Of a stretch of 64,000 bases of DNA, positions 1 through 64,000 are shown piece after piece (within the stretch, counting starts at the first letter, position 1; the number at the start of each line of letters is the position of its first letter). Source of the DNA: an uncultured Chloroflexia bacterium (lineage in GTDB: Bacteria > Chloroflexota > Limnocylindria > Limnocylindrales > CSP1-4); contig CAVRKB010000012.1 of the NCBI GenBank assembly GCA_963721545.1, positions 31,409 through 95,408 of the forward strand. The letters run 5' to 3'. Position numbers and translations under genes: made by a program. Below the pieces are notes generated by a model, which made no database searches, had not been told where the DNA came from, and saw only the letters and a program-made list of their open reading frames with translations.

Positions 1-621
1 CTGCTCGGTGACGTCGAGCCCGAGCGCGAGCGGCCGTGGGATCGACGGGTCGGCCTCGCGCGCCGCCGCCCACGCCTGGAACACGATCTTCGCTGCCTCC
101 GGGTCGCAGTGGATGTTCCACTCCGTGGTTGGCGTGGTGTTGCCCGGCACGCCGTACGCGCCGCCCATCAGCGTGTAGCCGCGGAGGAGCCGCGGCAGCG
201 CCGGCTCGCGCTGGACGGCGAGCGCGAGGTTGGTCAGCGGCCCGAGCGTGACCAGCATGACCTCGCCGGGCCGGCGCCGGGCCGTGTCGAGGATGACGTC
301 GACCGCGTGCCGTTCCGAGAGCGGCCGTGACGGCGGCGGCAGCTCCGCGTGACCGATGCCGCGCGGCCCGTGCGTCTCGGGCGTCGTCTCCAGCGGCCGG
401 ACGAGCGGGACCTCACGGCCGAGGGCGACCTCGACGTCCGGCCGCCCGGCGAGCTCGAGGACCGCCAGCGTGTTGATCGCGACCTGCCGGGCATCGACGT
501 TGCCCGAGACGCATGTCGCGGCGAGGAGCTCCGCGTCGGGCGAGGCCGCCGCGTAGAGGAGCGCCAGGCTGTCGTCGATCCCGGTGTCGACGTCGAGGAT
601 GAGGGCCGTCCGATCCACCAC
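1..621 (-). CDS. inosine-uridine-preferring nucleoside hydrolase (IunH family); N-terminal two-thirds, C-terminus beyond window start
   Basis: Minus-strand translation from GTG at 619-621 gives [25 protein letters not shown]...HGPRGIG...LGPLTNLA...CDPEA, the nucleoside hydrolase Asp-cluster and core motifs. No in-window stop, so it is absent from the ORF track. Confidence 0.8.
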
Positions 622-630
622 GGCCCGATC

Positions 631-1164
631 CTAGCCGAGCGCGGCAGCTCCGACCGCGGCGGCCACCCGTGCCACGGCATCGTCCGGGGAGTGCTCGTCG
701 ACGTCGACCATCAGCGCGCCGAGCGCTTCGGCCAGCGGCTCACGATGGGCCGCCTGCTCGGCGAGGAACGCCTCGGGCGACTCGCCGTAGGCCGGCCGAT
801 GTTCGTCGGCCGACTCGAAGCGGGCGGCCAGCGTCTCCGCGCTGGCGTCCAGCCACACGACCAGGACGGCCGGCTTCGTCATGGCCGCCCGGCAGGCCGG
901 GTCGTCGATCACGCTGGCGGCTGCACTCACCACCATCGGTCCCGGCGCGGCGAGCGCCTCGAGCAGGTGCGCGTGCTCGCGCTCGTGCATGGCGGTCACA
1001 CCCTCGCGGTCGCGCAGCTCGCGCACGGTGAGCCCGGTCGCCGCCTCGATGTCGACGTCGGAGTCGCGCCACGGCCAGCCAAGCCGCTTCGCGAGGTCTC
1101 GCCCGACGGTCGTCTTGCCGGCGCCCATCAGGCCGGTGATCACGACATGGTCAACGGCTGTCAT
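631..1164 (-). CDS. aroK: shikimate kinase
   Basis: Walker [23 protein letters not shown] followed by shikimate-kinase core. Internal Met ([11 protein letters not shown]) chosen as start, giving a divergent arrangement with purK. Confidence 0.8.
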
Positions 1165-1195
1165 CGCGACAGGGTAGCCCCCGTACACTCGCGCC

Positions 1196-2902: not shown

Positions 2903-3833
2903 TCAGCCGCCCTCGACCCACGGCGTGACCGCGCCGCGCACACCGACGTCGATCGCCCACAGGGTCGTGGTCGCGGTGATGAACAGCCGCCGGCCGTCGG
3001 CGCCACCGAACGTGCAGTTGCCGGCCGGCTCGGGCACCAGGATCCGCCCGAGCTCGGTGCCCCGGTCGTCGAGGACGTGGATGCCGTCGCCGGCCGACGT
3101 CCACAGGTTGCCTTCGACGTCGACCCGGAAGCCGTCCGGGAGGCCGGGCTCGACGACCGCGAACACGCGGGGCGACTCGAGCGTCCGTCCGTCGATCACG
3201 TCGAAGGCGACGATGTGGTGGTTGCCGCCCTCGATCCGCGCGGCCGAGGTGTCCGACACGTACAGCACGCGCTCGTCGGGCGAGAAGGCCAGGCCGTTCG
3301 GGTGGACCAGGTCGCCGTAGACGATCGCCAGCTCGCCGCTGGCGGGGTCGAAGCGGAAGACGTTGCACGCACCAAGCTCGGAATCGGCCTTGTAGCCCTC
3401 GTGGTCGTCGAGGATGCCGTACGGCGGGTCGCTGAACCAGATGCGCGCCGTCAGACGCGACCACGAGGTCGTTCGGCGAGTTGAGGCGGCGGCCGTCGTA
3501 CCGGTCGACCACCGTCGTCCGCGAACCGTCGGGCTCGTAGCGCGCGACGCGCCGGGGTCCGTGCTCGCAGGCGAGGACCCGCCCGTCGAGGTCGAGCGTG
3601 TGGCCGTTGGCGAAGTCGGACGGGCGGAGGAGCTCGCTCGGGCCGTCGGCCGCCGACCAGCGACGCACCACGTTGCCCGGGACGTCGCTCCACAGGACGG
3701 CGTCCTCGTCGGGGACGTAGACGGGGCCTTCCGCCCAGATCGCGCCGTCCGCCAGCCGGACGAGCTCGGCGCCCGCCGGCACGAGCCGCTCCAGCCGCGG
3801 GTCGCGCACGATCCGCTCGACGCCGGTCCCCAT
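2903..3833 (-). CDS. SMP-30/gluconolactonase/LRE family protein (one apparent frameshift)
   Basis: N-part (MGTGVERIV...LVVASDGA) and C-part (IWFSDPPYG...LYVSDTSAARIEGGNHHIVAFDV...) are both SMP-30 homologous but lie in two frames. An extra C in gcgCatctgg near 3435 separates them. Confidence 0.7.
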
Positions 3834-4570
3834 CAGGACACCGCGTTCGGTCGTGGAGCCACGGCGGTCGCCGCTGACGGCCCGCGATGCTCGGCCAGGT
3901 GCAGCCCGAGGTCCAGCGCGATCTTGAGCAGCACGAGCACGACGATCGCCGCCGCCGGGGCGCCGGTCACGCTGATCGCCATCGCGCCGATGATGACCGT
4001 GACGTGCATGACGACCAGCCGGCCGTACGGCGCAAACATCTGCGCCGCGGCCGTGGTCCGCAGGTACTCGCCCCGGCCGATGTAGTTGAAGACGTACGAC
4101 ACCCCGTGGCTGATGAACAGGCCGACGAGCACGAAGGCGATCGCCAGCGGGTTCAGCGTCGTCCCGAAGTCCGGCTCGCCCTGGGCGCCCGTGAACGCGA
4201 ACAAGGGGAGCGTCAGGACGAACAGGCCGTGGACGACCCAGAAGATGCCGTAATGCATGATGAAGAACGGGATCAGGGTCGCCTTGTCCATGCCGCTCGG
4301 CGAGCGGCCGTTGACCCGCATGCCACTCAGCTTGCGACGGGTCTCGCGCACCGCTTCCGGCGACGCGTCCTCCGGCCCATCGGCGCGACGCATCTTCAGC
4401 ACGTTGAACAGCCCGTAGATGCCGTTCTCCAGCCAGTAGATGATCAGGATTCCCCAGACGTCCCAGCCGAACCACAGCACGCCGGCGAGTGGGATCAGGT
4501 TGGCGACGATCAGCGCGACGACCGCGCCGACCGACGAGCCGACCCGGTACCAGGCGACGAGGCGCTGCAT
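3833..4570 (-). CDS. hypothetical polytopic membrane protein
   Basis: Intact 245-aa ORF with 6-7 hydrophobic helices and no recognisable catalytic motif. Its stop overlaps the gluconolactonase start (ATGA). Confidence 0.55.
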   Translation of the reverse strand: MQRLVAWYRVGSSVGAVVALIVANLIPLAGVLWFGWDVWGILIIYWLENGIYGLFNVLKMRRADGPEDASPEAVRETRRKLSGMRVNGRSPSGMDKATLIPFFIMHYGIFWVVHGLFVLTLPLFAFTGAQGEPDFGTTLNPLAIAFVLVGLFISHGVSYVFNYIGRGEYLRTTAAAQMFAPYGRLVVMHVTVIIGAMAISVTGAPAAAIVVLVLLKIALDLGLHLAEHRGPSAATAVAPRPNAVS

Positions 4571-4626: not shown

Positions 4627-5611
4627 CTAGGCGCTGAGCTCGACCGGGCTGACCGAGACGGACCGGCTCTCGCCGCCGCGTTCGACGCGCAGCTCGACGC
4701 GCCGCCCGATGACGTCGCCGACGAGCTGGCGCTGGAGGTCGCCGACGCCCTCGATCGGCTGTCCGTTGAGCTCGGTCACGATGTCGCCGACGCGCAGCCC
4801 GGCGCTGGCGGCCGGACCCGGCTCGAGGAGCTGGACGATCTCGAGCCCGCGTGGGCGGCCGATCCGGGCGGCGACGGCCTCGCCGAGCGGCCGCGTCCCG
4901 CCGACGATGCCGAGGAACGCGCGCCGGACGCGGCCGTCGACGATCAGCGCATCGAGGATCCCGCGGGTGACCGCGTCGATCGGCACGGCGAGGCCGAGCC
5001 CGATTCCGGCGACCGCGGTGTTGATGCCGACGACCCGTCCGCGCGAGTCGGCGAGCGCCCCGCCGGAGTTGCCCGGGTTGAGCGCGGCGTCGGTCTGGAT
5101 GACGTTCTCGACCAGCCGGCTCGACCGCCCGTCACGCGTGGCCAGCGAACGGCCGAGCGCGCTCACGACGCCGGCGGTCACAGTTCCCGCGAACCCGAGC
5201 GGATTGCCGATGGCGACGACGAGCTGGCCGACCCGCAGCCGGGCCGCGTCGCCGAGCGGCGCCGCCGTCGGGCTGCCGCCCGCCGTCCGGACGACGGCGA
5301 GGTCGGACAGGGGATCGCGGCCCACGACCGAGAAGTCGAGCTCGGCGCCGTCGACGAACGTGGCGGTGCCCCGTTCCGAGCCGGCGACCACGTGGGCCGA
5401 GGTCACGAGATAGCCGATCGGGCTCGATCGCCACGGCCGACCCCGCGCCGCCGGCCGACCAGCCGCCGACCTGGCGGGTCACGCGCAGGCTGGCGACCGA
5501 CGGGATCAGCCGCTCGGCCGCCGTCGAGACGGCGACCGAGTAGGCATCGAGCGCCTCGTCATCGATGGCGTCGACCGGATCGGCGTCCGGCCGTGGCAGC
5601 GAGGCGAGCAC
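4627..5611 (-). CDS. HtrA/DegP-family trypsin-like serine protease with C-terminal PDZ domain (one apparent frameshift)
   Basis: TSAHVV...D(L/I)AVVR...GNSGGAL catalytic triad context plus a PDZ tail. The N-terminal 60 aa are in another frame; a 1-nt insertion near 5420 (gatCggctat). Confidence 0.7.
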
Positions 5612-5616
5612 GGCGG

Positions 5617-6518
5617 TCAGGCCTCGCCGGTGGCGGTGGTACCCCCGCCGACCTGGACGGTGCGCTCATCGTTGCCGCGGACGAGCTTGACCTCGAACGG
5701 GAAGTCGAGCGCGCCGAGCGCCTCGTGGAGCTCGTCGGCATCGGTCACGGCGCGGCCGCCGGCCTCGACGATCAGGTCGCCCGGATTCGATCCCGGCCGC
5801 CGCCGCGGGGCTGCCGTCCTCGACGCCGCGGACGAGCACGCCCTCGCGCTCCGGGAGCCCGACCGACCGGCGCATCCGCCGCGCGACGTGCGACGGGGCG
5901 ACGGCCACGCCGAGGCGCAGGCGCTTGGGCGACTCACCGCGACCGAGGGCGTCGATCCGCCCGCGCAGCTCGTCGTCGGCCGGCAGGGCCAGATAGAAGC
6001 CCTCGCCGATCCGATTCGTGTTGATCCCGACGAGCTTGCCCGCCGCATCGAGGAGCGCCCCGCCGGACGAGCCGGGCGCGAGCGGCGCGGTGTGCTCGAC
6101 GCTGCCCTCGATCCGCCGGCCACCGGGGCCCCGGAACGCGCGGGCGACCGCCGAGACGAGCCCGAACGTCACACGGGTGCCGCCACCGTGGCTGGCGCCG
6201 GCGCCGAACACGGCCGTGCCGACCGTGAGCGCGGAGCCGTCGCCCCACTCGAGCGGGGTGGCGGCCGCCGGTGTCGACGTCGATGACGGCCAGGTCGCCC
6301 TCGCCGTCGAAGCCGGCGACGGTGCCGCGCACCCGCCGGCCATCGGCGAAGGTGACGGTGACCTCGTCGCCGCGCAGGTTGTGGGCGTTGGTCAGGACCT
6401 TGCCCGCAGCAAGGACGATGCCCGAGCCGCGCGTGCCACGGCCGATTCCGACGATCGATGGGCCGACGTTTTCGGCGGCCTGGGCGACGGCGGTCTGGAG
6501 TTCTTCGATGGCGCTCAT
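5617..6518 (-). CDS. HtrA/DegP-family serine protease, second tandem copy (two apparent frameshifts)
   Basis: Three consecutive frame segments: MSAIEELQ...GKVLTNAHNL...DLAVIDV, then GTAVFGAG...GSSGGALLDAAGKLVGINT, then the PDZ GDLIVEAGGRAVTD. ATG at 6516-6518 with a GGAGCAACC-type RBS. Confidence 0.65.
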
Positions 6519-6549
6519 GGGCTGGTTGCTCCGTGTTGTGCGGTGGGAA

Positions 6550-6571
6550 TAGACTTGTAACTTGCAATCTA
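6550..6571. promoter_or_regulatory. candidate operator in the htrA/hxlR divergent intergenic region (TAGA-CTTGTAA-CTTGCAA-TCTA)
   Basis: AT-rich 22-mer in a 70-bp intergenic region: tandem CTTGYAA heptamers flanked by inverted TAGA/TCTA. Positioned 17 nt upstream of the hxlR GTG. Confidence 0.3.
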
Positions 6572-6587
6572 CTACTGACTCGGAACC

Positions 6588-7070
6588 GTGACAACCCCCG
6601 ATCTCGCCCCTACCATCGCCGCCATGCCCGATGCCCAAGACCTGACCGCGGCCCGGCGCGAGTCGACATCCCTCGAAGCGGCGCTCGAGCGCGTCGGCGA
6701 CCGCTGGAGCCTGCTCTTGGTCGACGCCCTGCTCGCCGGCCCGCGCCGGTTCAACGAGCTGGCCGAGGCGATCCCCGCGATCGCACCGAACATCCTGACC
6801 GACCGGCTGCGCCGCCTCGAGCGCGAGCGGATCGTCCATGCGACGCCCTACCAGCAGCGCCCGCCCCGGATGTCCTACGCCCTGACCGCCGATGGACGCG
6901 ACCTCGCCTCCGTCCTGCGCCTCCTGGCCGACTGGGGCTCGCGCGGCGCGACCGACGCCGACCCGATGCGCCACGGCGTGTGCGGCACCCCGCTCGAGAC
7001 GCGCTGGTATTGCCCGACCTGCGACCTGTCGATCGAAAGCCGCGACGCCGACGAGTCACGGACCGTCTGA
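6588..7070 (+). CDS. HxlR-family transcriptional regulator with C-terminal Cys-rich (zinc-ribbon-like) extension
   Basis: DRWSLLLVDALLAGPRRFNELAEAIPAIAPNILTDRLRRLERERIV is the HxlR-type wHTH. The C-terminal tail VCGTPLETRWYCPTCD carries a C-x10-C-P-x-C arrangement. Confidence 0.8.
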   Translation: MTTPDLAPTIAAMPDAQDLTAARRESTSLEAALERVGDRWSLLLVDALLAGPRRFNELAEAIPAIAPNILTDRLRRLERERIVHATPYQQRPPRMSYALTADGRDLASVLRLLADWGSRGATDADPMRHGVCGTPLETRWYCPTCDLSIESRDADESRTV

Positions 7071-7076
7071 GGCGGC

Positions 7077-7499
7077 TCAGGCCTCAGTGCGCCGCGCGGC
7101 ACCGACGAACGCGTGGAGCCCGTCGAACAGCGGGCCGGTCAGCTCGAGCAGTCGGTCGTCGTCGACGGTCATCGACAACCCCCGGATCAGCGCGTCGAGC
7201 CCCGCAGCCTCGGGGGCGTCATAGCGGTCGTCGCCGATGTCCGCCTCGTGGACGATCCGGCCGATGGCCGCCAGCACAGGGTCTGTCAGCCCGTAGTGGG
7301 CGAGCATCACCTCGAACGTGCAGTCGCCGCCGTGGTGCGAGAACGCCGCACCCGGCACATCGAATGGCGTCGCGTCGACGGGCACGTCGCCCGGGTCGTC
7401 GACGAACACGAACGTCGCGTCGCGGTCGATCGAGCGCACGATCAGCCAGGCACAGGCGGCCCGATCGACATGGCAGCCGCGCCGTGTCGCCCACCTCAC
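7077..7499 (-). CDS. ChrB C-terminal-domain protein (chromate-resistance regulator family)
   Basis: WATRRGCHVDRAACAWLIVRSIDRDATFVFVDD matches the ChrB C-domain. GTGA overlap with the upstream ChrB N-domain ORF. Confidence 0.7.
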   Translation of the reverse strand: MRWATRRGCHVDRAACAWLIVRSIDRDATFVFVDDPGDVPVDATPFDVPGAAFSHHGGDCTFEVMLAHYGLTDPVLAAIGRIVHEADIGDDRYDAPEAAGLDALIRGLSMTVDDDRLLELTGPLFDGLHAFVGAARRTEA

Positions 7500-7969
7500 G
7501 ACGCGGCCTCGAGCGTGTCACCGAGTCCTTCGACCGCGGCCTCCGCCCTCGCCGCGATCGGCGGCGGGAAGTAGTCGCGCGACCGGATCCGGCGCAACTC
7601 ACGGCGCAGTCGGGCCACGGTCCGAAGCCGGTCGGACCGAGGGGCTGCCGCCGCGGCTCGAGCATCACCCATGACACGCGCATAGTCCGCCGCGACGGCC
7701 TCGGCCATCCGGGCAGCGAGCGCCTGATCCTGCCCCGTTGTCGCCGGCTCCGCCAGCCAGATCGTCGCCTCGCCGCCGGACTCACGAATGTCCTCGGCCA
7801 GCCAGTCCAGGCGTTCGCGCGTCTGCGCGTCCAGCGGGAGGGCCACGAGCCCGTCAGCCAGCTGGATTGCGCCGAGCCGGCGCAGCGTGCGCCAAGTAGA
7901 GATGCGAGGTGTCGACGGCTCGCGGGGGATCCGATAGGCCATCAGGACCCAGCGTCGCTTGGCTGCCAT
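7496..7969 (-). CDS. ChrB N-terminal-domain protein
   Basis: MAAKRRWVLMAYRIPREPSTPRISTWRTLRRLGAIQLADGLVALP matches the ChrB N-domain. Encoded separately from, and translationally coupled to, the C-domain ORF. Confidence 0.7.
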   Translation of the reverse strand: MAAKRRWVLMAYRIPREPSTPRISTWRTLRRLGAIQLADGLVALPLDAQTRERLDWLAEDIRESGGEATIWLAEPATTGQDQALAARMAEAVAADYARVMGDARAAAAAPRSDRLRTVARLRRELRRIRSRDYFPPPIAARAEAAVEGLGDTLEAAS

Positions 7970-8018
7970 GGCCGGAGTTTACCATGAAAAATGCAACCGT
8001 GGTTACAATTCTCGGTTC

Positions 8019-9308
8019 ATGGACGTCACGTCGACTCAAAGGTCAGCGGGCACGGCAGGCCTGTGGTCGAAGGCCGACTTCCGCCGGTTGTGGGGCGCCG
8101 ATGTGATCAGCCGTCTTGGCGATGCCACGACCGTGCTCGCCTTGCCACTGGCTGCCATCGTGGCTCTCGGGAGCAGCCCGTTCGAGGTGGGCCTCATCGG
8201 CGTCGCCCAGTTCGCCGCGGCGATCGTGTTCGGGTTGCCCGCGGGCGCGTGGGTCGACCGGCTCGGCCGCCGCAAATTGACGATGATCGCGGCCGACGTC
8301 GGCCGCGCCGTCAGCCTCGCGACGATCCCGCTGGCGTATGCGGCAGGGGTCCTGACGATCGGGCAGCTGCTGGTCGTCGCGGCCGTCAACGCCGCGCTCG
8401 CGTCGTTCTTCGACGTTGCCTCGAGCGCCTTCGTACCCGAGCTCGTGGGTCGGCCCAACCTGGTCGAGGCGAACGCCAAGCTGGCGATGGGACGATCTGC
8501 CGCGGAGGTCGGTGGGCCGGCCATCGGGGGCGCGCTGATCGCGGTCGCCGGCGCGCCGCTGGCCGTGGCCTTCGACGGCGTCAGCTTCGTCGTGTCGGCC
8601 ATGACGCTGCGGCGCGTGTCGATCGACGACCATGGGCAACCGCCCGGGACAACCTCGGGGGGCACATCCCTCCGACGCGACATCTCGATCGGCGTTCGCT
8701 TTGTCGCGCGGCAGCCGTACGTTCGCGCCGTTGCGGTGACGGCATGCCTTGGCAACCTGTCGCGCACCGTGGCGTTCACGGTCCTGCTCATCTACGCGAT
8801 CCGCGAGGCCGGCCTCTCGCCGCTCGCAATCGGTGTGGCGTTCGCGGTGGGCAATGTCGGGTTCTTCGTCGGCGGGCTTACCGCGACGCGGCTCACCAGG
8901 CGCCTCGGACTCGGATGCGCCATGGTCGTCGCGGTCCTTTGCTTTGGGCCGGCGATGACGCTCGTCCTGGTGGCACCGGCCGCCCAGCTGGCGCCGGCGA
9001 TCGGGCTGATGGCATTCCTGAACGGCCTCGGCATCGCCTTCCATGGGGTCAACCAGATCAGCCTGCGCCAGGCCGTTACGCCAGCTCGCCTGCTGGCTCG
9101 GGTCGCCGCGGTCACGCGGCTGCTGATCATGGGCGCCCTGCCGCTCGGCGCCGCCATCGGCGGGATCCTCGGGTCAGTCATCGGGCTCCACCAGACGATG
9201 GTGATCGGCACAGTCGGCCTGTATCTCATGGTGATCCCGTACCTCGTGTCTCCCGTCCATCGGCTGCGATCGCTGCCCGAGCCCGATGAAGGTCACGATC
9301 CCGCCTGA
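8019..9308 (+). CDS. MFS transporter
   Basis: 12-TM MFS architecture: GWVDRLGRRKL loop motif, repeated 6+6 helices. TACAAT 9 nt upstream of the ATG. Confidence 0.8.
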   Translation: MDVTSTQRSAGTAGLWSKADFRRLWGADVISRLGDATTVLALPLAAIVALGSSPFEVGLIGVAQFAAAIVFGLPAGAWVDRLGRRKLTMIAADVGRAVSLATIPLAYAAGVLTIGQLLVVAAVNAALASFFDVASSAFVPELVGRPNLVEANAKLAMGRSAAEVGGPAIGGALIAVAGAPLAVAFDGVSFVVSAMTLRRVSIDDHGQPPGTTSGGTSLRRDISIGVRFVARQPYVRAVAVTACLGNLSRTVAFTVLLIYAIREAGLSPLAIGVAFAVGNVGFFVGGLTATRLTRRLGLGCAMVVAVLCFGPAMTLVLVAPAAQLAPAIGLMAFLNGLGIAFHGVNQISLRQAVTPARLLARVAAVTRLLIMGALPLGAAIGGILGSVIGLHQTMVIGTVGLYLMVIPYLVSPVHRLRSLPEPDEGHDPA

Positions 9309-9536
9309 CCCCCAGCGCCGAGACCGCGTGCAACCTGGGCGGGCCACCGGCCGCGGGACCGTGTCCCGGAGCGACCATCCGCGACTGGTTCCGATCATGC
9401 GGAACCATCTGTGCTGATGGCCTGGAGATCGTTCCGTTTGGGTGGAACCAACTCCAAACGATGATCGTGGGCGGGCCCGATCCCAAACCTCGGTGCGCTT
9501 CCGGGCGCTCCGGCACGCTCCGGCTACACTCGGGCG

Positions 9537-9959
9537 ATGGATGACGAGCGCTGGGAGCCGGGCATGCCGGTCCTCGACCGCCAGGCCGTCCGTACCCCGG
9601 TCCTGCCGCCCAGCCTGCGCGGTCTTCCGCCCCGGTCTGTCCCTGAGGTCGCGCCCACCCCGCTCCAGCGCCACTACATCAACCTGAGCGTGATCGTGCT
9701 GATCTGCGGCGCCGTGGCGATCACCGCGCTCGAGCTCGGGGCGTCGCTCGGCAGCCCGCTGGTCAAGCTCTGCGTCGTGATCGCAGCGCCGCTCCTCGTG
9801 GTGACGACGGCCGACGCGGTGGTACGGATCTGGCGCTCGGCCTGGGCATGGATGCCGATCGACCGCACGAAGGGCCTCTTCCGCCTGGCCTGGGTCGCGG
9901 TCAGCCTGATCGGGCTCGCAGCGCTCGTCGCAGCATCGATCGTGGTCCTGCTCGCATGA
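9537..9959 (+). CDS. hypothetical small membrane protein
   Basis: 140-aa ORF with three predicted TM helices. Preceded by a 230-nt structured non-coding region. Confidence 0.45.
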   Translation: MDDERWEPGMPVLDRQAVRTPVLPPSLRGLPPRSVPEVAPTPLQRHYINLSVIVLICGAVAITALELGASLGSPLVKLCVVIAAPLLVVTTADAVVRIWRSAWAWMPIDRTKGLFRLAWVAVSLIGLAALVAASIVVLLA

Positions 9960-10017
9960 GCAGCCCGAGCGAGAGCCGCAGCCGACCGAGCGAGATCCGG
10001 CCGCGCCCCACCCGGCC

Positions 10018-12100: not shown

Positions 12101-12222
12101 CGTGGGCCTCCGGGTGTGAACGAACGGCGCTGGGCGCCGGCAGGTGTGGGCCCTCGATGATACGCCCGGCGCCCGGGCGGCCCTCTCGGAGCGCCGCCGA
12201 TCGGTGACCCGCGGCGCGACCC

Positions 12223-13098: not shown

Positions 13099-13117
13099 CG
13101 ATTCCTCCGGCCTGCCC

Positions 13118-13885: not shown

Positions 13886-13942
13886 GCCCGCTCCCTCATC
13901 CATCCGTGGCGCGGATGCCAGAGTAGCGCGATGCGGCCCCGT

Positions 13943-52462: not shown

Positions 52463-52549
52463 GGGCTACCTCACCCGGACGACGGAGAACGAAGAAGGGC
52501 CGATGGGGTGAACATCGGCCCTTCGTGGTCGAGAGGTCAGGCCGTCTTG

Positions 52550-54271: not shown

Positions 54272-54446
54272 CGCTGTACTCCTCCGGCATCCACCCTGGC
54301 AGGGTCGCGCGCTCGCGAGCATCGTTCGCGGACAGCCACCGCCCGGCCACGGGTTCCTCCTCCGAGCGGCGGTGTCTCGGAACGGTACTGGCGGCCCCTC
54401 GCACTGTCAACGAACCCGACTCGCAACACTGCGCGATACTCGCGCC

Positions 54447-55558
54447 GTGCGCATCACCGCCGTTCGCGCTCGATCGCCTGGTCGTCCCGCTGGACCCGCC
54501 GTTCGACGCCGCGTGGGACCCGCAGCCGCGCCGCTCGTTCGCCGCAACGATCGTGCGGGTCGAGACCGACGAGGGCGTCGTCGGGGTCGGCTCGGGCGAC
54601 ACGATGGACGGCTTCGAGGCGTTCGAGCACCTGTTCGTCGGGCAGGACCCGCTGGCGATCGCCCGGCACGTCCGGGCGCTCGAGACGATCGACTTCCACG
54701 CCGGCCGCTACTGGCCGCTCGAGGTCGCGCTGTGGGACGTCATCGGCCAGGTCGCGGGTCTCCCCGTCGCCACGCTCTTCGGCGGCGCGCTCGACGGCAT
54801 CCCGGCCTACGCCTCGTGCGGGTCGCTGCTGCCCCCGGCCGAGCGGGCCGAGTCGGCGCTCGCGCCGGCGCGACGAGGGCTTCCGGGCGCTCAAGATCCG
54901 GGTCGACCCGAACCACCTCGAGGAGGGGCTCGCCGCGGTCGCCGCGACGCGCGACGCGGTCGGAGATTCGATGGCGATCATGGTCGACCTCAACCAGGGC
55001 TGGCGGATGGCGGGCGACACGGCGGGCTCGCTCGACCCGGTCGCGGCCCGCGAGATCGCGGTCCGGCTGGCCGATTACGACGTGCTGTGGCTGGAGGAGC
55101 CGCTGGCCGGCACGGACCTGCCCGGCCTGGCCGCGCTGCGAGCATCGGCGCCCGGCATCCGCATCGCCGGCGGCGAGATGACCCGCACCTTCACCGAGCT
55201 CGTCGCCGCGCTCGACGCGGACGCGTTCGACGTCCACCAGCCCGATGTCGTCCTGGCCGCCGGGATGCTCCGCGGGCGGACGCTCGGCGAGCTGGCGCTG
55301 GCCCGCAACCGCTGGTACAGCCCGCACACCTGGACCAACGGGATCGGGCTGCTGGCCAACCTGCACGTCGCGGCGGGGGTCGGCGGCGGTCCGTTCATCG
55401 AATACCCGTACGACCCGCCCGGCTGGACCGCCGAGCGGCGCGACTTCATGCTCCGCGAGCCGGTCCGGCCCGGTCCCGACGGCGTCCTCCGCGTCCCCGC
55501 CGCGCCGGGCCTCGGGATCGAGCTCGACGAGGCCGCCCTGCGGCGCTACGCGGCATGA
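54447..55558 (+). CDS. enolase-superfamily enzyme (mandelate racemase/muconate lactonising enzyme subgroup), two apparent frameshifts
   Basis: Capping-domain N-terminus (VRVETDEGVVGVGSGD); barrel with RALKIRV, metal ligands MVDLNQGW / WLEEP / DVHQPD, and a C-terminal HTWTNG. Three frame segments: 54447-54475, to about 54860, and to 55558. Confidence 0.65.
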
Positions 55559-57068
55559 CCGCCGGGACCAAGCGCGACGCTCGACGACTGGCTTGCTCGG
55601 GCGGCCGCGGTTGCGCCCCGGACGGAGCTGTTCGTCGACGGGCGGTTCGCGCCGGCCGCCTCGGGTCGGACGTTCGACGACATGGCGGGCCGCGACGGGT
55701 CGCGGATCGCGGCGGTGGCGGAGGGCGGCACGGAGGACGTCGACCGCGCCGTCGCAGCCGCCCGCCGCGCCTTCGACGACCGGCGCTGGTCGGACCAGCC
55801 GCCGCATGGCGCGCAAGAAGGTCCTGCTCCGCCTCGCCGAGCTGGTCCGCGAGCACCTCGAGGAGCTCGCCCTGCTCGAATCGCTCGACGTCGGCAAGCC
55901 GATCCGCGACACGCTCCGGGTGGACGTCCCGAGCGCCGCGACGACGCTCCAGTGGTACGCCGAGACGATCGACAAGACGTACGGCGAGGTCGGCCCGACC
56001 GGGCCGGACGCCCTGTCACTGGTGACCCGCGAGCCGATCGGCGTCGTCGCCGCGATCGTGCCCTGGAACTACCCGCTGATCATCACCGCCTGGAAGCTGG
56101 GCGCCGCCCTGTCGACCGGCAACTCGGTCGTGCTCAAGCCGGCCAGCCAGTCGCCGCTGACCGCGCTGCGCCTTGCCGAGCTCGCCGCCGAGGCGGGGCT
56201 TCCGGACGGCGTGCTCAACGTGGTGACCGGTCCGGGCCAGGTCATCGGCGACGCACTGGCGCGCCATCCCGGCGTGGACAAGATCGCGTTCACCGGCTCG
56301 ACCGAGGTGGGTCGTTCGCTGCTCCGCGCGGTCGGGGAATCGGACGTCAAGGCCATCTCGCTCGAGCTCGGCGGCAAGAGCCCGCAGGTCGTGCTGGCCG
56401 ACGTCGGCGACCTCGAGGCGGCCGCCTCCACGATCGGCTGGGGGATCTTCTACAACAGCGGGCAGACCTGCAACGCCGGGTCGCGCCTCGTCGTCCATCG
56501 CTCGCACCGGGCGGAGCTGGTCGAGCGGGTGGCGGCATTCGGTCGGACGGTGGCGCCGGGCGAGCCGCTCGACCCGCGGACCAAGCTCGGCTCGATCGTC
56601 GACGAGCGCCAGCTGGCGAAGGTCCTCGGCTACGTGCAGCTCGGGCGCGAGGAGGGTGCCACCGTCGTCGCCGGCGGCGAGCGCGTCCGGGAGGAGAGCG
56701 GCGGCGCGTACATCGGCCCGACGATCCTCGACGGCGTGGCCAACTCGATGCGGGTCGCGCGCGAGGAGATCTTCGGACCCGTCCTGACCGTGACCGAGTT
56801 CGACGACGAGGACGAGGCGATCGCGATCGCCAACGACTCGCCGTACGGCCTGGCCGCCGGGCTGTGGACCCGCGACGTCAAGCGCGCCCACCGGCTCGCC
56901 CGGCGGATCCGAGCGGGCGTCGTGTGGGTCAACACCTTCGACACGGCCGACATCACGGTCCCGTTCGGTGGCTACAAGCAATCCGGCTTCGGGCGCGACA
57001 AGGGCCTCCCGGCGCTCGACGGGTACACCCAGCTCAAGACGACCTGGCTCGACCTGTCGGACGGCTAG
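55555..57068 (+). CDS. NAD(P)-dependent aldehyde dehydrogenase (two apparent frameshifts near the 5' end)
   Basis: IVPWNYPLIITAWK, ELGGKSP, YNSGQTCNAGSRL catalytic Cys, EEIFGPV. The first 80 codons are spread over three frames. ATGA overlap with the enolase-family stop. Confidence 0.75.
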
Positions 57069-59470: not shown

Positions 59471-60889
59471 GTGACGGATATGGACACGGCCGCGGGCGAG
59501 GGGCTGCGCCGACGGCGAGGCGGCGGCCGTGAGGGTCATGCCCGCAATGCCCTGCCGCAGCAGCCGCCGTGGGCCCAGCCGCGCCTGCGCTACCCCCCGA
59601 CCGAGCTGCTGTCGGCCGACGAGCTCGAGTCGATCCATACCGGCTCGCTCCGCGTCCTGTCCGAGATCGGGATGGACTTCCTCGACGCGGACGCCCGCGA
59701 GGTCCTGCGCGCCGCCGGGGCGACCGTCGAGCCCGATTCGCAGCGGGTCCGGTTCGACCCCGGGATGGTCACCGAGCTGATCAAGACGGCGCCGGCGCAG
59801 TTCACGCTCCACGCCCGCAACCCCGCGCGTGACGTCCAGCTGGGTGGCGACTGGGTCGCCTTCGGGACCGTCGGCAGCCCGCCCAACGTCGCCGACCTGG
59901 ACCGCGGCCGGCGGATCGGGAACCGGGCCGACTACCAGAACCTGCTGCGCCTCGCCCAGTCGCTCAACGCCGTCCATTTCCTGTCGGGCTATCCCGTGGA
60001 GCCGGTCGACCTCCATCACGGGGTTCGGCACCTGTGGGCGAGCTACGACGCCCTGACGCTGATGGACAAGGCGGTCCACTGCTACAGCCTCGGCCGTCAG
60101 CGCAACATCGACGTCCTCGAGATGGTCCGCATCGCCCGCGGCGTCGACCAGGCGACGATCGACCGGGAGCCGTCGGTCTTCACCGTCGTCAACTCGAGCT
60201 CACCGTTGCGCCTCGACGCCCCGATGCTCCAGGGGATCATGGAGTTCGCGGCCCACAACCAGGTGGTGTGCATCACGCCGTTCACCCTGGCCGGGGCGAT
60301 GGCCCCGGTCACCCTCGCCGGTGCCCTCGCCGAGCAGAATGCCGAGGCGCTGGCCGGGATGGTGCTGACCCAGGCGGTCAATCCGGGTGCCCCGGTCATC
60401 TACGGAGGCTTCACCTCGAACGTCGACATGCAGTCGGGGGCGCCGGCGTTCGGGACTCCCGAGTACATGCGGACGGCGATGATCGGTGGCCAGCTGGCGC
60501 GCCGCTACGGCGTCCCGTACCGGTCCTCGAACGTGTGCGCCGCCAACGCCCTCGACGCGCAGGCCGCCTACGAATCGGTCTTCTCGCTGTGGGGCGCGAT
60601 CCAGGGCGGGGTCAACCTGCTGATGCACGGCGCCGGCTGGATGGAGGGCGGGCTGCACGCCAGCTACGAGAAGATGATCCTCGACGCGGAGCTCCTCGGG
60701 ATGGTCGCCGCGTTTCTCGAGCCGGTCGTGGTGGACGACGAGACGCTGGCCTTCTCGGCGATGCAGGAGGTCGGTCCCGGCGGCCACTTCTTCGGCGCCG
60801 AGCACACCCAGTCGCGCTACCGGACCGCGTTCCACAAGCCGATGCTGAGCGACTGGCGCAACTACGAGACGTGGGAGGAGGCCGGATAG
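59471..60889 (+). CDS. MttB-superfamily methyltransferase homologue, second copy (C-terminal 49 aa continue in the +1 frame to 61038 after an apparent indel creating TAG at 60887)
   Basis: 472-aa frame with MttB-family blocks (GAMAPVTLAGALAEQNAEALAG, DMQSGAPAFGTPE, GWMEGGLHASYEKMILDAE). The downstream +1 frame encodes ANRIWKELLAAYEPPPMDPAIAEELDAFV, homologous to the C-terminal tail of the first MttB copy. Confidence 0.8.
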   Translation: MTDMDTAAGEGLRRRRGGGREGHARNALPQQPPWAQPRLRYPPTELLSADELESIHTGSLRVLSEIGMDFLDADAREVLRAAGATVEPDSQRVRFDPGMVTELIKTAPAQFTLHARNPARDVQLGGDWVAFGTVGSPPNVADLDRGRRIGNRADYQNLLRLAQSLNAVHFLSGYPVEPVDLHHGVRHLWASYDALTLMDKAVHCYSLGRQRNIDVLEMVRIARGVDQATIDREPSVFTVVNSSSPLRLDAPMLQGIMEFAAHNQVVCITPFTLAGAMAPVTLAGALAEQNAEALAGMVLTQAVNPGAPVIYGGFTSNVDMQSGAPAFGTPEYMRTAMIGGQLARRYGVPYRSSNVCAANALDAQAAYESVFSLWGAIQGGVNLLMHGAGWMEGGLHASYEKMILDAELLGMVAAFLEPVVVDDETLAFSAMQEVGPGGHFFGAEHTQSRYRTAFHKPMLSDWRNYETWEEAG

Positions 60890-61049
60890 CCCGGAGCTCC
60901 CTGCCAAGGCCAACCGGATCTGGAAGGAGCTGCTCGCGGCGTACGAGCCGCCGCCCATGGATCCGGCGATCGCCGAGGAGCTCGACGCGTTCGTCGCCCG
61001 GCGGGTGGCCGAGGGCGGCGTCCCGACCGATTACTGAAGGGGACCGATC

Positions 61050-63512
61050 GTGAAGTCATCAGCCCAGGTGTGGTCATCGGCGGCGGCGTCGTCGGGTGCA
61101 GCGTGCTGTACCACCTGACCAAGGCCGGCTGGACGGACGTCGTGCTGCTCGAGCGGCGCGAGCTGACGGCCGGCTCGACGTGGCACGCGGCCGGTGGCAT
61201 GCACACCCTCAACGGCGACCCGAACGTGGCCCGCCTCCAGCAGTACACGATCAAGCTGTACGAGGAGATCGAGCGGGTCTCCGGCCAGGACTGCTCGATC
61301 CATCTGCCCGGCGGGCTGATGCTGGCCGACACGGAGGTCCGCATGGACTTCCTGCGGATGGCCCAGTCGCGCGGCCGCTACCTGGGCATGGACCTCGAGC
61401 TGATCTCCGCGCGCGAGGCGCAGGACCTCTTCCCGCTGCTCGACCCGCAGTACTTCGTCGGCGCGCTGTACGACCCGGTCGAGGGCCACGTGGACCCGAC
61501 CGGCGTCACCCGCGCCTACGCCAAGTGCGCCCAGCTCGCCGGGGCGGAGATCCGCCAGCACACGAAGGTCGACGGGCTCGCCCAGCGCCCGACGGCACGT
61601 GGGACGTCCTGATCGAGGACGGCGACCCGATCCACGCCGAGCACGTCGTCAACGCCGGCGGGCTGTGGGCGCGCGAGGTCGGCCGGATGGTCGGGCTGGA
61701 GCTGCCGGTCCTCGCCATGCAGCACCAGTACCTGCTGACCGTGGACATGCCCGAGGTCGCGGAGCACGTCGCGCAAACGGGCCGCGAGATGCCGATGACG
61801 CTCGACTTCGGCGGCGAGATCTACCTCCGCCAGGAGGGCGGCGGCACGCTGATGGGGACCTACGAGCAGGCCGCCATCCCGTGGTCGCCGAAGGAGACGC
61901 CGTGGGACTTCGGGTCGGAGCTGCTCAAGCCCGACCTCGACCGGATCACCCCGGAGCTCCAGGTCGCCTTCCGCCACTACCCGGCGATGGGCACGACCGG
62001 GATCCGGCGGGTCGTCAACGGCCCGTTCACCTTCGCCCCGGACGGCAACCCGCTCGTCGGCCCGATCCGCGGGCTGCGCAACTTCTGGGTCGCCTGCGGG
62101 GTGATGGCCGGGCTGTCGCAGGGCGGCGGCGTTGGCCTCGCGCTGGCGGCCTGGATGACCGCCGGCGACCACGGCGACTCGGGCATGGATATCTGGGCGA
62201 TGGATGTCGCGCGGTTCGGCGATTACGCGACGCTGGCCTACACCAACGCCAAGGTCCAGGAGAACTACCGGCGCCGGTTCCGGATCACGTTCCCGAACGA
62301 GGAGCTGCCGGCCGCCCGGCCGCTGCTGACCACGCCGATCCACGACCGGCTGACCGCCGCCAACGCGGTATGGGGCGCGTCGTTCGGGCTCGAGCACGTG
62401 CTGTGGTTCCAGAAGCCCGGCCTGCCGCCGTTCGAGGACGTGACGTTCCGCCGGTCGAATGCCTGGGAGCCGGTCGCCGGCGAGGTCGAGGCCGTCCGCG
62501 AGCGGGTGGGGCTGACCGAGATCTCGAACTACGCCAAGTACCGCGTGACCGGCCCGGGCGCCGAGGCGTGGCTGTCGTCGCTCCTCACCGCGCGGATGCC
62601 GAAGGCCGGGCGAATGACGCTCACCGCGATGCTCAACGACGGGGCCGGATCGTCGGCGAGTTCACCGTGGCCCGGCCCGACGACGGCGACACGTACTACC
62701 TGTTCGGCTCGCTCGGGGCGGAGGTCCATCACTCGCGCTGGTTCCGCGCCCACCTGCCCGCCGACGGGAGCGTCCGCTTCGAGGTCCTCGGGCTGTCGCT
62801 GACGGGGCTGTCGATCGCCGGGCCGCACGCCCGTGACGTCCTGGCGTCGATCACCGACGAGGACCTGTCGACCGAGGCATTCCGGTTCATGGACTTCCGG
62901 CGGGTCGACCTCGGGATGATCCCGGCGCTCGTGGCGCGGATCAACTACGCCGGCGACCTCGGCTACGAGCTGTGGGTCGCGCCGGAATACCAGGCCGCGC
63001 TGTTCGACGCGGTGATGGCCGCCGGGCAGGAGCACGGCATCCGCCTGTTCGGCTTCCGCGCGCTGATGTCGCTCCGGCTGGAGAAGAGCTACGGGACCTG
63101 GTTCCGCGAGTACCGGCCGATCTACACCCCGGCCGAGGGCGGGATCACCAACTACCTCAAGCTCGACCACGAGTTCATCGGGCGGGCCGCGCACGAGGCC
63201 GAGCTGGCCGCCGGTGGCCCCGCCCGCCGGCTCGTCGCGCTCGTCGTCGAGCCGGATCCGGACGATCCAGCGGATGTCATCGGCGACGAGCCGATCTGGC
63301 ACGGCGGCGAGGTGGTCGGCTGGGTGACCTCGGGCGGCTACGGCCACCACGTCAAGCAGTCGATCGCGCTGGGTTACGTACCCGCGGCACTGGCGGACCC
63401 GGCCGGTCCGGGCGCCGACGGCTTCGAGATCGAGATCATCGGCCGGCGCCGGCCGGCCCGGCTCCAGCCACGGCCGCTGTTCGACCCCGAGGGCGCCCGG
63501 ATGCGCCAGTGA
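61050..63512 (+). CDS. dimethylglycine/sarcosine dehydrogenase-family FAD oxidoreductase with C-terminal GcvT-like folate-binding domain (about 3 apparent frameshifts)
   Basis: VVIGGGVVGCSVLYHL DAO Rossmann, HAAGG, GLWAREVG, FGLEHVLWF; then the aminomethyltransferase-like domain (ARINYAGDLGYELW, GFRALMSLRLEKSYG, GWVTSGGYGHHV) in a third frame. GTG at 61050 is proposed only if a 1-nt indel restores MKSSAQVVVIGGG. Confidence 0.75.
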
Positions 63513-64000
63513 CCGAAGGGGCCTCGCCCGAAGTCGAGGGCGCGCCCGGACGGATCGTCGTCGACGGGCGGCCGCTAGCGTTCGAGCCGGGCGACTCGGT
63601 GGCCGTCGCGATCCTGCGCGCCGGCGAGGTCCCTGGGCGCGGCGGGACGCTGTGCCTCGCCGGCGACTGCGGGAATTGCCTGGCACAGGTCGACGGCGTG
63701 GCCTACGTGCGGACCTGCCAGACCGCGGCCCGGCCCGGGATGGCCGTCGTCCGGCACCCAGCCGGTTCGAAGCCGCCACTCCCCGTGGTTGCCGGCCCGG
63801 ACCTGACCTCCCCGCCGGTCGAGCGGGAGGTGCCGGTCTGGCGCGTCGAAACGGACATGGCGGTCATCGGCGGCGGGACCGCGGGCGCCACGGCGCGTGC
63901 AGCCGCGGAGGGTGCCGGTCGCTCGTCGATGCTGCTCGACGCGGCCGCCGGCGACGAGGTGGTGGCGATCTACCCGGGTCCGACCATCGTGGTCCGGACG
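63509..64000 (+). CDS. sarcosine-oxidase-alpha-like subunit, N-terminal part (2Fe-2S ferredoxin-like domain then FAD-binding motif); continues beyond window
   Basis: GTGA overlap with the preceding stop. RIVVDGRPLAFEPGDSVAVAIL...CLAGDCGNCLAQVDGVAYVRTCQT ferredoxin-like segment, then MAVIGGGTAGATAA dinucleotide motif. Confidence 0.55.
   Translation, partial: MTEGASPEVEGAPGRIVVDGRPLAFEPGDSVAVAILRAGEVPGRGGTLCLAGDCGNCLAQVDGVAYVRTCQTAARPGMAVVRHPAGSKPPLPVVAGPDLTSPPVEREVPVWRVETDMAVIGGGTAGATARAAAEGAGRSSMLLDAAAGDEVVAIYPGPTIVVRT

Follow-up and report, generated by a model that had tools for sequence, protein, structure and literature searches.

Single-base frameshifts across a 64-kb window from Chloroflexota "Ca. 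Limnocylindrales" most likely reflect consensus errors

Results

Extent of frame breakage in the window

The window, by which we mean the whole 64-kb stretch of DNA analysed, has Chloroflexota "Ca. Limnocylindrales" MAGs as its relatives, no genome in GTDB r232 exceeded ~83% nucleotide identity to it, and look-ups of exact protein matches gave no hit. We tracked reading frames by codon usage with a six-frame Viterbi path, scanned the joined frame segments with Pfam, and performed frameshift-aware protein-to-DNA alignment with intact proteins of short-read relatives as references. These approaches revealed ~56 frame-breaking one-base indels across 28 genes, of which 50 were insertions and 6 were deletions (binomial p = 1e-9), a rate of ~1 per 1.1 kb that equals a consensus quality of ~Q30. 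A preliminary description had reported ~50 pervasive single-nucleotide frameshifts in at least 30 genes; the frameshifts and the widespread breakage were borne out, but the gene count was 28, and its statement that deletions and premature stops were lacking proved incorrect. The affected genes outside the opp operon were as follows.

2906..3880, minus strand: SMP-30/gluconolactonase (SGL); insertion ~3444 (GCG[C]ATCTGG); Pfam SGL 1-245/246 across the junction; with the C removed, the frames read ...VVASDGA joined to IWFSDPPYG
4630..5608, minus strand: HtrA-like serine protease 1; insertion 5422; Pfam Trypsin across the junction; 2 short-read references concur
5620..6569, minus strand: HtrA-like serine protease 2; insertions 5782 and ~6266; Trypsin_2 and PDZ_2 across the junctions; 4 references concur
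19119..19788, plus strand: Rieske [2Fe-2S] protein with TAT signal; insertion 19407; 4 references; DNA alignments give GTATGT[C]CCC in the window versus GTACGT-CGC
19789..20463, plus strand: membrane protein, function unassigned; insertion ~20069, the least supported of the listed events; Viterbi switch, one-base gap in 1 relative
20513..21960, minus strand: aspA, aspartate ammonia-lyase/fumarase-class lyase; insertions ~20586 and 21684; 4 references for both positions; Lyase_1 1-312/312 across 21684; window-specific gaps versus 15/15 and 10/13 relatives
23366..23893, plus strand: flavin reductase; compensating pair of deletion ~23570 (DNA-aligned at 23562, present versus 7/7 relatives) and insertion ~23692; Flavin_Reduct 1-152/153 across both; 1 reference gives both
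23905..24650, plus strand: ComB, 2-phosphosulfolactate phosphatase; insertions ~24203 (2-ph_phosp across it) and ~24501 (frame reading TS[C]EEAARTLV)
25802..26705, plus strand: enoyl-CoA hydratase; insertion 26435; ECH_1 5-250/251 across the junction; 4 references concur
29024..30022, plus strand: PaaA; insertion ~29422; PaaA_PaaC 4-263/263 across the junction; 1 reference
31245..31740, plus strand: PaaD; insertion 31512; FeS_assembly_P and PaaD zinc-ribbon flank the junction; 2 references concur
31739..32931, plus strand: PaaH, 3-hydroxyacyl-CoA dehydrogenase; insertion ~32244; 3HCDH_N 2-179/180 across the junction; 1 reference
32967..34197, plus strand: PaaJ, thiolase; insertion 33462; Thiolase_N across the junction; 4 references; gap versus 9/9 relatives
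34253..36443, minus strand: AT3 acyltransferase-SGNH fusion; insertion ~35078; Acyl_transf_3 and SGNH in different frames; placed by frame reading only (DAHD[C]VPLPPDVV)
38544..39530, plus strand: MerR-family regulator with B12-binding domains; insertion ~38801; MerR_1 and B12-binding in different frames; placed by frame reading only (ESMAE[G]ERWDRLAEQ)
40320..41195, plus strand: LON substrate-binding-domain protein; insertion ~40509 and deletion ~40828, the latter imprecisely placed because of an acidic low-complexity stretch; LON_substr_bdg 1-200/200 across both; 4 references
41218..41843, minus strand: molybdopterin oxidoreductase (MsrP/YedY-like); deletion ~41753; 4 references; deletion versus 30/30 relatives
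41926..42713, plus strand: family 2 glycosyltransferase (GT2); insertions 42244 and 42461; gaps versus 30/30 and 31/31 relatives; an intact 257-278 aa reference falls in three successive frames
42724..43786, plus strand: lysyl-phosphatidylglycerol-synthase-like membrane protein; insertion 43297; LPG_synthase_TM across the junction; 4 references
47407..48343, minus strand: inosine-uridine nucleoside hydrolase; insertion 47995; IU_nuc_hydro 1-296/297 across the junction; gap versus 15/16 relatives; 1 reference
54423..55555, plus strand: enolase-superfamily (MR_MLE) enzyme; insertions 54468 and 54862; MR_MLE_N and MR_MLE_C in different frames; 4 references for both positions
55559..57065, plus strand: aldehyde dehydrogenase 2; insertion 55805; Aldedh 5-460/461 across the junction; references concur
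59471..61034, plus strand: MttB-family methyltransferase 2 (MttB2); TAG 60887-60889, then a one-base insertion ~60890-60893; 4 references; MTTB profile positions 1-456 and 460-500 in successive frames; DNA alignment gives GGATAGCCCGGAG in the window versus GGCTCGCCC-GAG in relatives
61003..63509, plus strand: dimethylglycine-dehydrogenase-like enzyme (DAO, FAO_M, GCV_T); deletions 61589 (2 references and DNA alignment) and ~62640 (Viterbi and Pfam basis only); DAO and GCV_T each across a junction

Along the Viterbi path the frame changed dozens of times on the same strand at points that lacked a stop codon, and codon bias was undamaged in every shifted segment. In the joined segments, single Pfam domain matches continued unbroken across the junctions; these were SGL, Trypsin_2 (1-144/144 in both HtrA genes), Lyase_1, Flavin_Reduct, ECH_1, PaaA_PaaC, 3HCDH_N, Thiolase_N, LON_substr_bdg, Glycos_transf_2, LPG_synthase_TM, IU_nuc_hydro, SBP_bac_5, Aldedh, DAO, and GCV_T. 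Shift positions were reproduced by independent short-read reference proteins, and DNA alignments showed one-base insertions specific to the window against as many as 63/63 relatives. Multi-base deletions were absent among the frame-breaking events of the window, and the only in-frame stop was the TAG at 60887, which adjoins an insertion and is TCG in relatives.

Most sites singled out in the preliminary description were recovered close to where it had put them: the extra C at ~3435 lay at ~3444, the extra bases at ~5420 and ~20580 at 5422 and 20580-20588, and the event at ~21695 at 21684, and the TAG at 60887 did continue in the +1 frame. The motif gtcgGccgac was present, but at 51564 rather than 51540.

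The opp operon

The opp genes lie in a hot zone of events and were resolved as follows.

48515..50650, minus strand: fused OppD/OppF ATPase (OppDF); 10 insertions (48749, 49062, 49318, 49340, 49356, 49387, 49541, 49605, 49801, 50369); 4 references of 688-753 aa yield the identical ten; gaps versus as many as 63/63 relatives in DNA alignments
50620..51544, minus strand: OppC permease; insertion 51331; 4 references; gap versus 60/61 relatives
51511..52465, minus strand: OppB permease; insertions 51568 and 52184, deletion 52414; 4 references; versus 61/61, 58/59, and 57/59 relatives
52541..54274, minus strand: OppA substrate-binding protein; 10 insertions (52552, 52757, 52941, 53053, 53297, 53631, 53767, 53882, 53895, 53983); aligned to the intact 574-aa JGI protein P0001

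In this lineage a single ORF encodes OppD and OppF as a fusion, giving four opp genes in total and not the five counted earlier. After removal of 10 bases, OppA was 96.5% identical to P0001 over all 574 residues. The JGI contig that encodes P0001 is independent and the closest relative, and at the protein level, at which alone it was compared, its OppA (574 aa), OppB (317 aa), and OppC (296 aa) are intact, and its OppDF ORF continues uninterrupted for at least 707 aa until the contig end cuts it. Two checks proposed earlier, comparison with a related genome and restoration of single full-length proteins by corrected ORFs, came out in favor of sequencing error. The intact operon in this near-conspecific contig supports reading the frameshifts of the window as errors.

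Intact regions and clustering of events

Several parts of the window were free of frameshifts.

6579..19108, no strand assigned: control block of 13.1 kb with ~16 genes (HxlR, ChrB_C, MFS, NUDIX, ALDH1, ROK, SDR, MarR, ankyrin, glutamine-synthetase-like, SOD, PadR, and others); no internal shift in alignments with up to 80 references per gene; full-length Pfam coverage
43776..45774, plus strand: OYE/FAD oxidoreductase; 680-aa references without internal frameshift
45838..47385, plus strand: MttB1; 501-564 aa references without internal frameshift; residues 1-515 at 95% identity
57659..59362, plus strand: UbiB/ABC1-family kinase, 567 aa; single ORF; one Viterbi frame over 57663-59345; Pfam ABC1 1-230/244

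The last three had been cited as intact long genes, and they were. Events were strongly clustered (index of dispersion 3.2, p = 8e-9). The hot zone at 48.4-54.9 kb (6.5 kb) held 26 events in the final list (24 in the tally behind the dispersion test), in agreement with the density peak described earlier in the opp operon, and another stretch, of 13.1 kb, had none. Within the window, event density did not correlate with G+C content, nor did it follow the density found per kilobase in the Nanopore relatives (rho = 0.28, p = 0.30). The clustering could reflect local low coverage or mixed-strain read support.

Insertion context and conservation

Among 23 precisely placed insertions, 14 had a run length of 1, 7 a run length of 2, and 2 a run length of 3; typical insertions turned GG into GCG or CC into CGC. 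Insertion slots favored the position between G and C (25% versus 13% background) and the interior of GG or CC pairs. The sites were G+C-rich, as the preliminary description had noted, but were not the homopolymer runs implied by its placement of lesions in GC runs. No shared motif was found around them, the best 4-mer enrichment being 1.6-fold, and none of the sites was common to any of up to 63 relatives.

After frame correction, only 0.5-1.9% of reference-invariant residues differed in frameshifted genes (OppDF 1.1%, 6/539; OppC 0.9%; GT2 0.5%; aspA 1.9%), compared with 2-7% in intact neighbors. The affected genes remain under purifying selection, and relaxed selection was not seen.

The signature follows sequencing technology

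We applied an identical frameshift pipeline to the window and to 62 related MAG loci, 39 Nanopore and 23 short-read. The rate in the window was 13.1 frame-shifting events per 10 kb. The short-read loci (n = 23) contained 7 insertions and 13 deletions in 287 kb (median 0, pooled 0.7 per 10 kb), whereas the MFD Nanopore-only loci of the same clade (n = 39) contained 176 insertions and 36 deletions in 625 kb, with up to 12 events per 10 kb (Mann-Whitney p = 3.5e-5). Inserted bases stood in runs of length 1 in 76/104 cases in the Nanopore MAGs, as in 14/23 in the window, and insertions made up ~83-89% of errors in the window and related MFD MAGs. The MFD-LR MAGs were assembled with Flye --meta --nano-hq and one Medaka round, and short-read polishing was absent (PMC12313526). 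By analogy, the window itself was probably produced by a Nanopore-type, long-read-only pipeline.

Discussion

We consider it highly probable that these frameshifts entered the deposited sequence as consensus errors and are not mutations of the organism; the window most likely derives from a long-read-only Nanopore-type MAG. The source would be such a MAG of a Chloroflexota "Ca. Limnocylindrales" bacterium, with a consensus built on read support that was modest or, in places, poor. This would leave about one spurious base per kilobase (~Q30), overwhelmingly single inserted bases outside homopolymers. Each would shift the frame, gene callers would split or truncate the 28 genes, and removing 50 bases and adding 6 would restore full-length, highly conserved proteins. 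These data agree with the earlier suggestion that the reads were long and uncorrected or the MAG region was of low coverage. Nanopore-only MAGs of the clade share the signature.

Genuine recent mass pseudogenisation, in which the organism is losing opp, paa, and other genes, has in its favor that the frameshifts are undeniably in the sequence, that they cluster in certain operons, above all opp and paa, as might be seen if dispensable pathways were decaying, and that there is one true in-frame stop. Real bacterial pseudogenes, however, generally show a deletion bias, and the 50:6 excess of insertions is the opposite. Multi-base deletions are lacking and nonsense codons essentially so, genes with ten frameshifts differ at ~1% of invariant residues, below their intact neighbors, codon bias is kept in all shifted segments, the opp operon of the nearest relative is intact, and the signature tracks technology across the 62 related MAGs. 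Mass pseudogenisation is therefore largely refuted already, and we regard it as very improbable; the preference for sequencing error expressed in the preliminary description was sound. Pervasive programmed +1 recoding or transcript editing, by which the cell would read past the extra bases, agrees with the need for a one-base skip at nearly all events and with clear selection on the genes. Yet recoding is very unlikely because the sites have no common slippery or stimulatory motif; moreover, they are not conserved in relatives, short-read MAGs of the clade lack them, and in the nearest relative one frame suffices to encode the same protein. It is the most far-fetched of the readings considered here.

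Consensus error could itself arise in more than one way. One is miscalling of homopolymer length, as with 454, Ion Torrent, or older Nanopore R9; the preliminary description favored this mechanism and named the first two platforms. It would account for one-base indels in G+C-rich sequence, for the minority of insertions that lengthen 2- or 3-base runs, and for at least 2 deletions in short G runs (41753, 61589). But most of the insertions that could be placed precisely form a run of length 1 and none lies in a run longer than 3. The window has only 53 runs of at least 5 bases (maximum 6), and a near-total insertion bias is not expected from such miscalls. We judge this mechanism very doubtful. 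A subtype of assembly error in which mixed strains lead both alleles of a polymorphic site to be kept side by side, leaving one-base insertions, is unlikely but deserves more weight. It would account for the excess of insertions, their position outside homopolymers, the clustering in more variable genes, and the occurrence in metagenome assemblies only, and the preference for G-C junctions and GG or CC interiors is in line with it. If most of the doubled sites were synonymous polymorphisms, however, insertions should avoid the slot between the first and second codon position, and insertion slots were not significantly non-uniform (p = 0.17 in the window, p = 0.23 in Nanopore relatives).

As artefacts of a long-read consensus, the frameshifts would hold little biological interest, and such errors mean that the window needs polishing before annotation.

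Comparison with known systems

In reductive decay of the Mycobacterium leprae type, genes gain deletions and nonsense codons, non-synonymous change rises, and codon bias fades. The window resembles it in that many genes are interrupted in a short stretch, some with several lesions, but those four hallmarks were not seen.

The closer likeness is to artefacts of long-read-only Nanopore MAGs, in which one-base indels likewise split full-length conserved genes, the rate is set by platform and coverage, and homology-guided single-base edits rebuild the proteins; the IDEEL test, proovframe, and short-read polishing are used to deal with them (PMC9262707; bioRxiv 10.1101/2021.08.23.457338; PMC12313526). 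Nanopore bins under ~40x coverage require polishing against frameshifts (PMC9262707). In that literature residual indels are mainly homopolymer, whereas in the window and the MFD MAGs they fall mostly outside homopolymers, and we found no published account of errors that are mostly insertions outside homopolymers. Many database pseudogenes are likewise assembly artefacts that vary by platform and coverage, and a raised pseudogene count is a sign of poor assembly (Cooley and Wright 2024, PMC11017572). The window is like these cases in that frameshifts are traced to assembler, platform, and coverage and not to evolution; that study gives weight to internal stops as an indicator of error overall, whereas the window carries nearly pure insertions, with almost no substitutions or stops.

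Frame breaks in the window and recovery of full-length proteins

Four independent approaches agreed that the frameshifts are present in the sequence. The codon-usage Viterbi path through six frames contained numerous same-strand frame changes at which the old frame had no stop codon. The frame segments were then joined and scanned against Pfam, and single Pfam matches crossed the junctions with continuous profile coordinates; single-base edits gave full-length proteins collinear with their homologues.

Pfam matches spanning frame junctions (profile coordinates/profile length)
SGL, 1-245/246
Trypsin_2, 1-144/144 (both HtrA genes)
Lyase_1, 1-312/312
ECH_1, 5-250/251
PaaA_PaaC, 4-263/263
Thiolase_N, 2-258/260
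IU_nuc_hydro, 1-296/297
Aldedh, 5-460/461
DAO, 3-353/353

Frameshift-aware protein-to-DNA alignment was performed with proteins predicted from short-read relatives as references, and the results showed that shift coordinates were identical across independent references and that the alignments reached full reference length. An intact GT2 reference of 257-278 aa was spread over three consecutive frames (shifts at 42244 and 42461), and a fused OppD/F reference of about 700 aa required ten shifts. DNA alignment further revealed that the one-base insertions were specific to the window against up to 63 of 63 relatives.

The final count was about 56 events, of which 50 were insertions and 6 were deletions, and 28 genes were affected. 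The preliminary description had estimated about 50 indels, which agrees with this count, and at least 30 affected genes, which is close. All of its example sites were recovered within about 25 nt, and the check that it had proposed, whether corrected ORFs restore single full-length proteins, was borne out by the unbroken Pfam matches and reference alignments.

Several switches and events were left out of the count. The frame switches at 3887 (DUF6498 to SGL) and 25401 (hydrolase to EthD) were ordinary gene boundaries, as were the Viterbi switches in PaaA-B-C-D, among others, and the switch at 12075 lay upstream of ALDH1 and was not a frameshift. Events that mapped to roughly the first 15 residues of a reference were also dropped (for example 26735, 43787, 45788, 55564 and 61039-61071), because the reference ORFs were untrimmed and carried spurious upstream extensions there. 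On the minus strand at about 21950-23300, about 1 kb was scored as non-coding by the frame model and contained Asp-box-like repeats (S/T-x-D-G-x-x-W) split over two frames, suggesting a beta-propeller-type gene that probably holds a few further, uncounted frameshifts.

Relatives of the window and comparison sets

The G+C content of the window was 72%, and its genes had their closest counterparts in uncultured Chloroflexota placed in "Candidatus Limnocylindrales". Relatives were gathered in two scans, and the following genes served as queries or were compared closely:

15114-16523: glutamine-synthetase-like gene
45838-47385: MttB1, intact MttB-family gene
48515-54274, minus strand: opp operon (OppA, OppB, OppC and fused OppDF)
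59471-61034, plus strand: MttB2

The MttB1 protein, searched against a single genome for each GTDB species, gave 80 loci, in which the MttB-family protein was 71-96% identical and which were syntenic with the window at roughly 33-60 kb; the best-aligning loci had a nucleotide identity of about 80-83%. Many of these loci came from MAGs named "MFD...", with Flye-style contig names, and others from short-read MAGs with k141_ or NODE_ contig names. The MFD MAGs belong to the Microflora Danica long-read catalogue, which was built from Nanopore data alone by assembly in Flye (--meta --nano-hq) followed by a single Medaka round (PMC12313526). A second scan, of JGI metagenome contigs with the glutamine-synthetase-like gene, added 80 contigs spanning roughly 10-28 kb of the window.

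None of the GTDB r232 species representatives exceeded about 83% nucleotide identity to the window, and its species seems not to be represented there. Look-ups of exact matches to the UbiB and MttB1 proteins gave no record. The closest sequence recovered was a 6.1-kb JGI metagenome contig (sample 3300067032), whose OppA was 96.5% identical.

The frameshifted genes do not resemble decaying genes

The indel spectrum of bacterial pseudogenes is generally deletion-biased. In the window, insertions outnumbered deletions 50:6 (binomial P = 1e-9), and no deletion longer than one base was found in the aligned genes, the opposite of what genuine pseudogenes or reductive evolution would give. We then measured divergence at positions where three or more references agreed without exception. 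The most frameshifted genes were the least diverged, with 0.5-1.9% of invariant residues changed compared with 2-7% in intact genes. A gene with ten real frameshifts would evolve neutrally and should have accumulated many substitutions, and the low divergence therefore counts against decay. Codon-usage frames were recovered in every shifted segment, and the Viterbi path follows these segments because their codon bias is intact.

Divergence at invariant residues in frameshifted and intact genes
Frameshifted: OppDF, 1.1% (6/539)
Frameshifted: OppC, 0.9%
Frameshifted: GT2, 0.5%
Frameshifted: HtrA2, 1.7%
Frameshifted: aspA, 1.9%
Intact: ALDH1, 3.6%
Intact: glutamine-synthetase-like gene, 3.3%
Intact: MttB1, 2.4%
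Intact: OYE, 7.0%

Among the corrected genes, only one in-frame stop was present, TAG at 60887-60889 in MttB2. It is a substitution, being TCG (Ser) in 4/4 aligned relatives, and it is directly followed by a one-base insertion that turns CCC-GAG into CCCGGAG (60887-60893). The relatives' TCG, the location near profile position 457 of 500 and the insertion that follows at once rule out reading this TAG as pyrrolysine. Programmed ribosomal frameshifting or recoding was likewise examined as an explanation for the frame changes. None of the insertion sites recurred in any of up to 63 relatives, the orthologues were single-framed at these positions in all relatives aligned, and the sites had no slippery or stimulatory motif in common; programmed frameshifting is therefore excluded.

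A search with the frame-corrected OppA identified a 574-aa protein on the JGI contig. Once ten single bases were removed from the window, the two proteins aligned over their whole length with 96.5% identity and without a seam at the junctions, a comparison made at the protein level with a relative that is not strictly conspecific. The same contig carried intact OppA (574 aa), OppB (317 aa) and OppC (296 aa) together with an OppDF ORF that is open over at least 707 aa and cut short where the contig stops. Comparison with a close relative, which the preliminary description had proposed, thus found the opp genes uninterrupted at the protein level.

The error signature tracks sequencing technology

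As a control, the identical test for lineage-specific indels was run on each relative. The Nanopore set differed from the short-read set (Mann-Whitney P = 3.5e-5), and the window lay at the top of the Nanopore-MAG distribution, far outside the short-read distribution. Among the relatives, the error signature thus tracks sequencing technology.

Lineage-specific indels by sequence source
Window: 24 insertions, 0 deletions; 18.3 kb tested; 13.1 events per 10 kb
23 short-read MAG loci: 7 insertions, 13 deletions; 287 kb; median 0 per 10 kb
39 Nanopore-only MFD loci: 176 insertions, 36 deletions; 625 kb; up to 12.0 per 10 kb

At the level of single loci, seven MFD loci (L001, L016, L019, L020, L032, L047 and L078) showed insertion-biased, non-homopolymer frameshifts as in the window, and the short-read MAGs of the clade were clean of them. 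At four Nanopore-only MFD loci (L069, L070, L076 and L078), the MttB match at 10001-115xx had a length that was not a multiple of three.

Sequence context of the inserted bases

Homopolymer-length error, as in 454, Ion Torrent or Nanopore R9 data, should affect runs of at least about 4 bases. For 23 insertions in the window the position could be fixed precisely; these bases formed runs of 1 in 14 cases, of 2 in 7 and of 3 in 2, with typical changes of GG to GCG, CC to CGC and G|C to GNC. Homopolymers of at least 5 bases number only 53 in the window, and the longest has 6 bases. The lesions occur at G+C-rich sites; since the placed insertions lie in runs of 1-3 and long runs are few, they are not homopolymer-length errors, and the sub-mechanism that the preliminary description had preferred did not agree with the run lengths and was rejected. 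Run lengths were distributed likewise in the Nanopore-MAG relatives, where 76 of 104 inserted bases formed a run of 1.

We examined 127 insertion sites from the window and the MFD loci together. No surrounding motif was enriched more than 1.6-fold and no methylation-like motif was found; the best 4-mer, CGGC, reached 1.6-fold and was marginal after correction for 108 tests. Inserted bases stood at G|C junctions twice as often as expected (25% vs 13%) and often split GG or CC pairs, and CpG junctions were rarer than expected (10% vs 16%).

Two further explanations for the one-base insertions were considered. The consensus may have kept both alleles of polymorphic sites, a less likely explanation that the codon position of the insertion slot neither favoured nor opposed; its distribution showed no significant non-uniformity, either in the window (P = 0.17) or in the Nanopore relatives (P = 0.23). 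Alternatively, pervasive insertions could be real and tolerated in functional genes of this Limnocylindria lineage and of the related lineages of the Nanopore MAGs, either through +1 recoding or transcript editing or as the very early stage of an unusual insertion-biased mutational process. In a weaker version, an unusual DNA modification in this high-G+C clade could provoke systematic insertion miscalls in Nanopore reads, and the artefact would then reflect genuine epigenetic biology. We consider this alternative very improbable; its modification version is more plausible than real tolerated insertions.

Clustering of events along the window

In an earlier tally, the events were strongly over-dispersed (index of dispersion 3.2; P = 8e-9). 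No event was found in 6266-19407, a 13.1-kb stretch of about 16 genes with good reference coverage. The 6.5-kb zone at 48.4-54.9 kb, comprising the opp operon and its neighbours, held 24 events compared with 5.5 expected in that tally (Poisson P = 5e-9) and 26 in the final list, and four insertions fell within 70 nt at 49318-49387. Event density correlated neither with G+C content (rho = 0.16, P = 0.37) nor with the per-kilobase density in the Nanopore relatives (rho = 0.28, P = 0.30). This clustering may stem from local dips in coverage or from strain variation that was collapsed, the two most obvious candidates.

Gene content of the opp and MttB regions

In this lineage, OppD and OppF form one fused ORF of about 690-750 aa (48515-50650, minus strand; orthologues at L007, L010, L013, L053 and L055), so the opp operon comprises four genes and not the five first described. 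At 42.7-47.4 kb and 59.4-64.0 kb, we observed two MttB-family methyltransferases (the intact copy without an internal TAG), a dimethylglycine-dehydrogenase-like enzyme, an OYE/FAD oxidoreductase and a downstream 2Fe-2S (Fer2_4) protein. This gene content suggests a cluster for the demethylation of methylated amines or glycine betaine.

Discussion

The frameshifts are most likely a consensus indel artefact of a long-read-only MAG, as indicated by the restoration of full-length proteins, the lack of relaxed selection, the absence of the events from relatives and the link to technology. The main interpretation of the preliminary description, error and not mass pseudogenisation, is thus supported by the indel spectrum, the low divergence, the intact relative and the technology link. 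The pattern and its link to technology were observed directly among the relatives; from these we infer that the window itself was made by a long-read-only pipeline like theirs. The consensus would then come from a long-read-only assembly polished where reads gave too little support, overall or locally; this would leave residual indels at about one per 1.1 kb (about Q30).

The value of this result is practical, for annotation, and not biological. Unpolished annotation would leave 28 of roughly 60 window genes split, truncated or called pseudogenes. Completeness estimates and metabolic reconstructions are at risk (opp peptide uptake, paa phenylacetate, aspartase and the methylamine/dimethylglycine genes), and inference of genome decay would be distorted if the sequence were left as it is. 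In this high-G+C Chloroflexota clade, most errors left in Nanopore-only MAGs are insertions of one base that lie outside homopolymers. Quality checks and correction tools focused on homopolymers would miss them; the frames need to be corrected with homologues as a guide, or the sequence polished with short reads.

Frameshifts persist in Nanopore bins of less than about 40x coverage unless these are polished (PMC9262707), and many database pseudogenes are artefacts of platform, assembler and coverage (PMC11017572); proovframe was made for correcting such frameshifts (bioRxiv 10.1101/2021.08.23.457338). The pattern failed all the tests that define genuine pseudogenes, homopolymer-type error or programmed recoding. 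The window belongs to this known class of frameshift artefacts of long-read-only assemblies, and its only departures from textbook long-read artefacts are the dominance of insertions and the lack of dependence on homopolymers.
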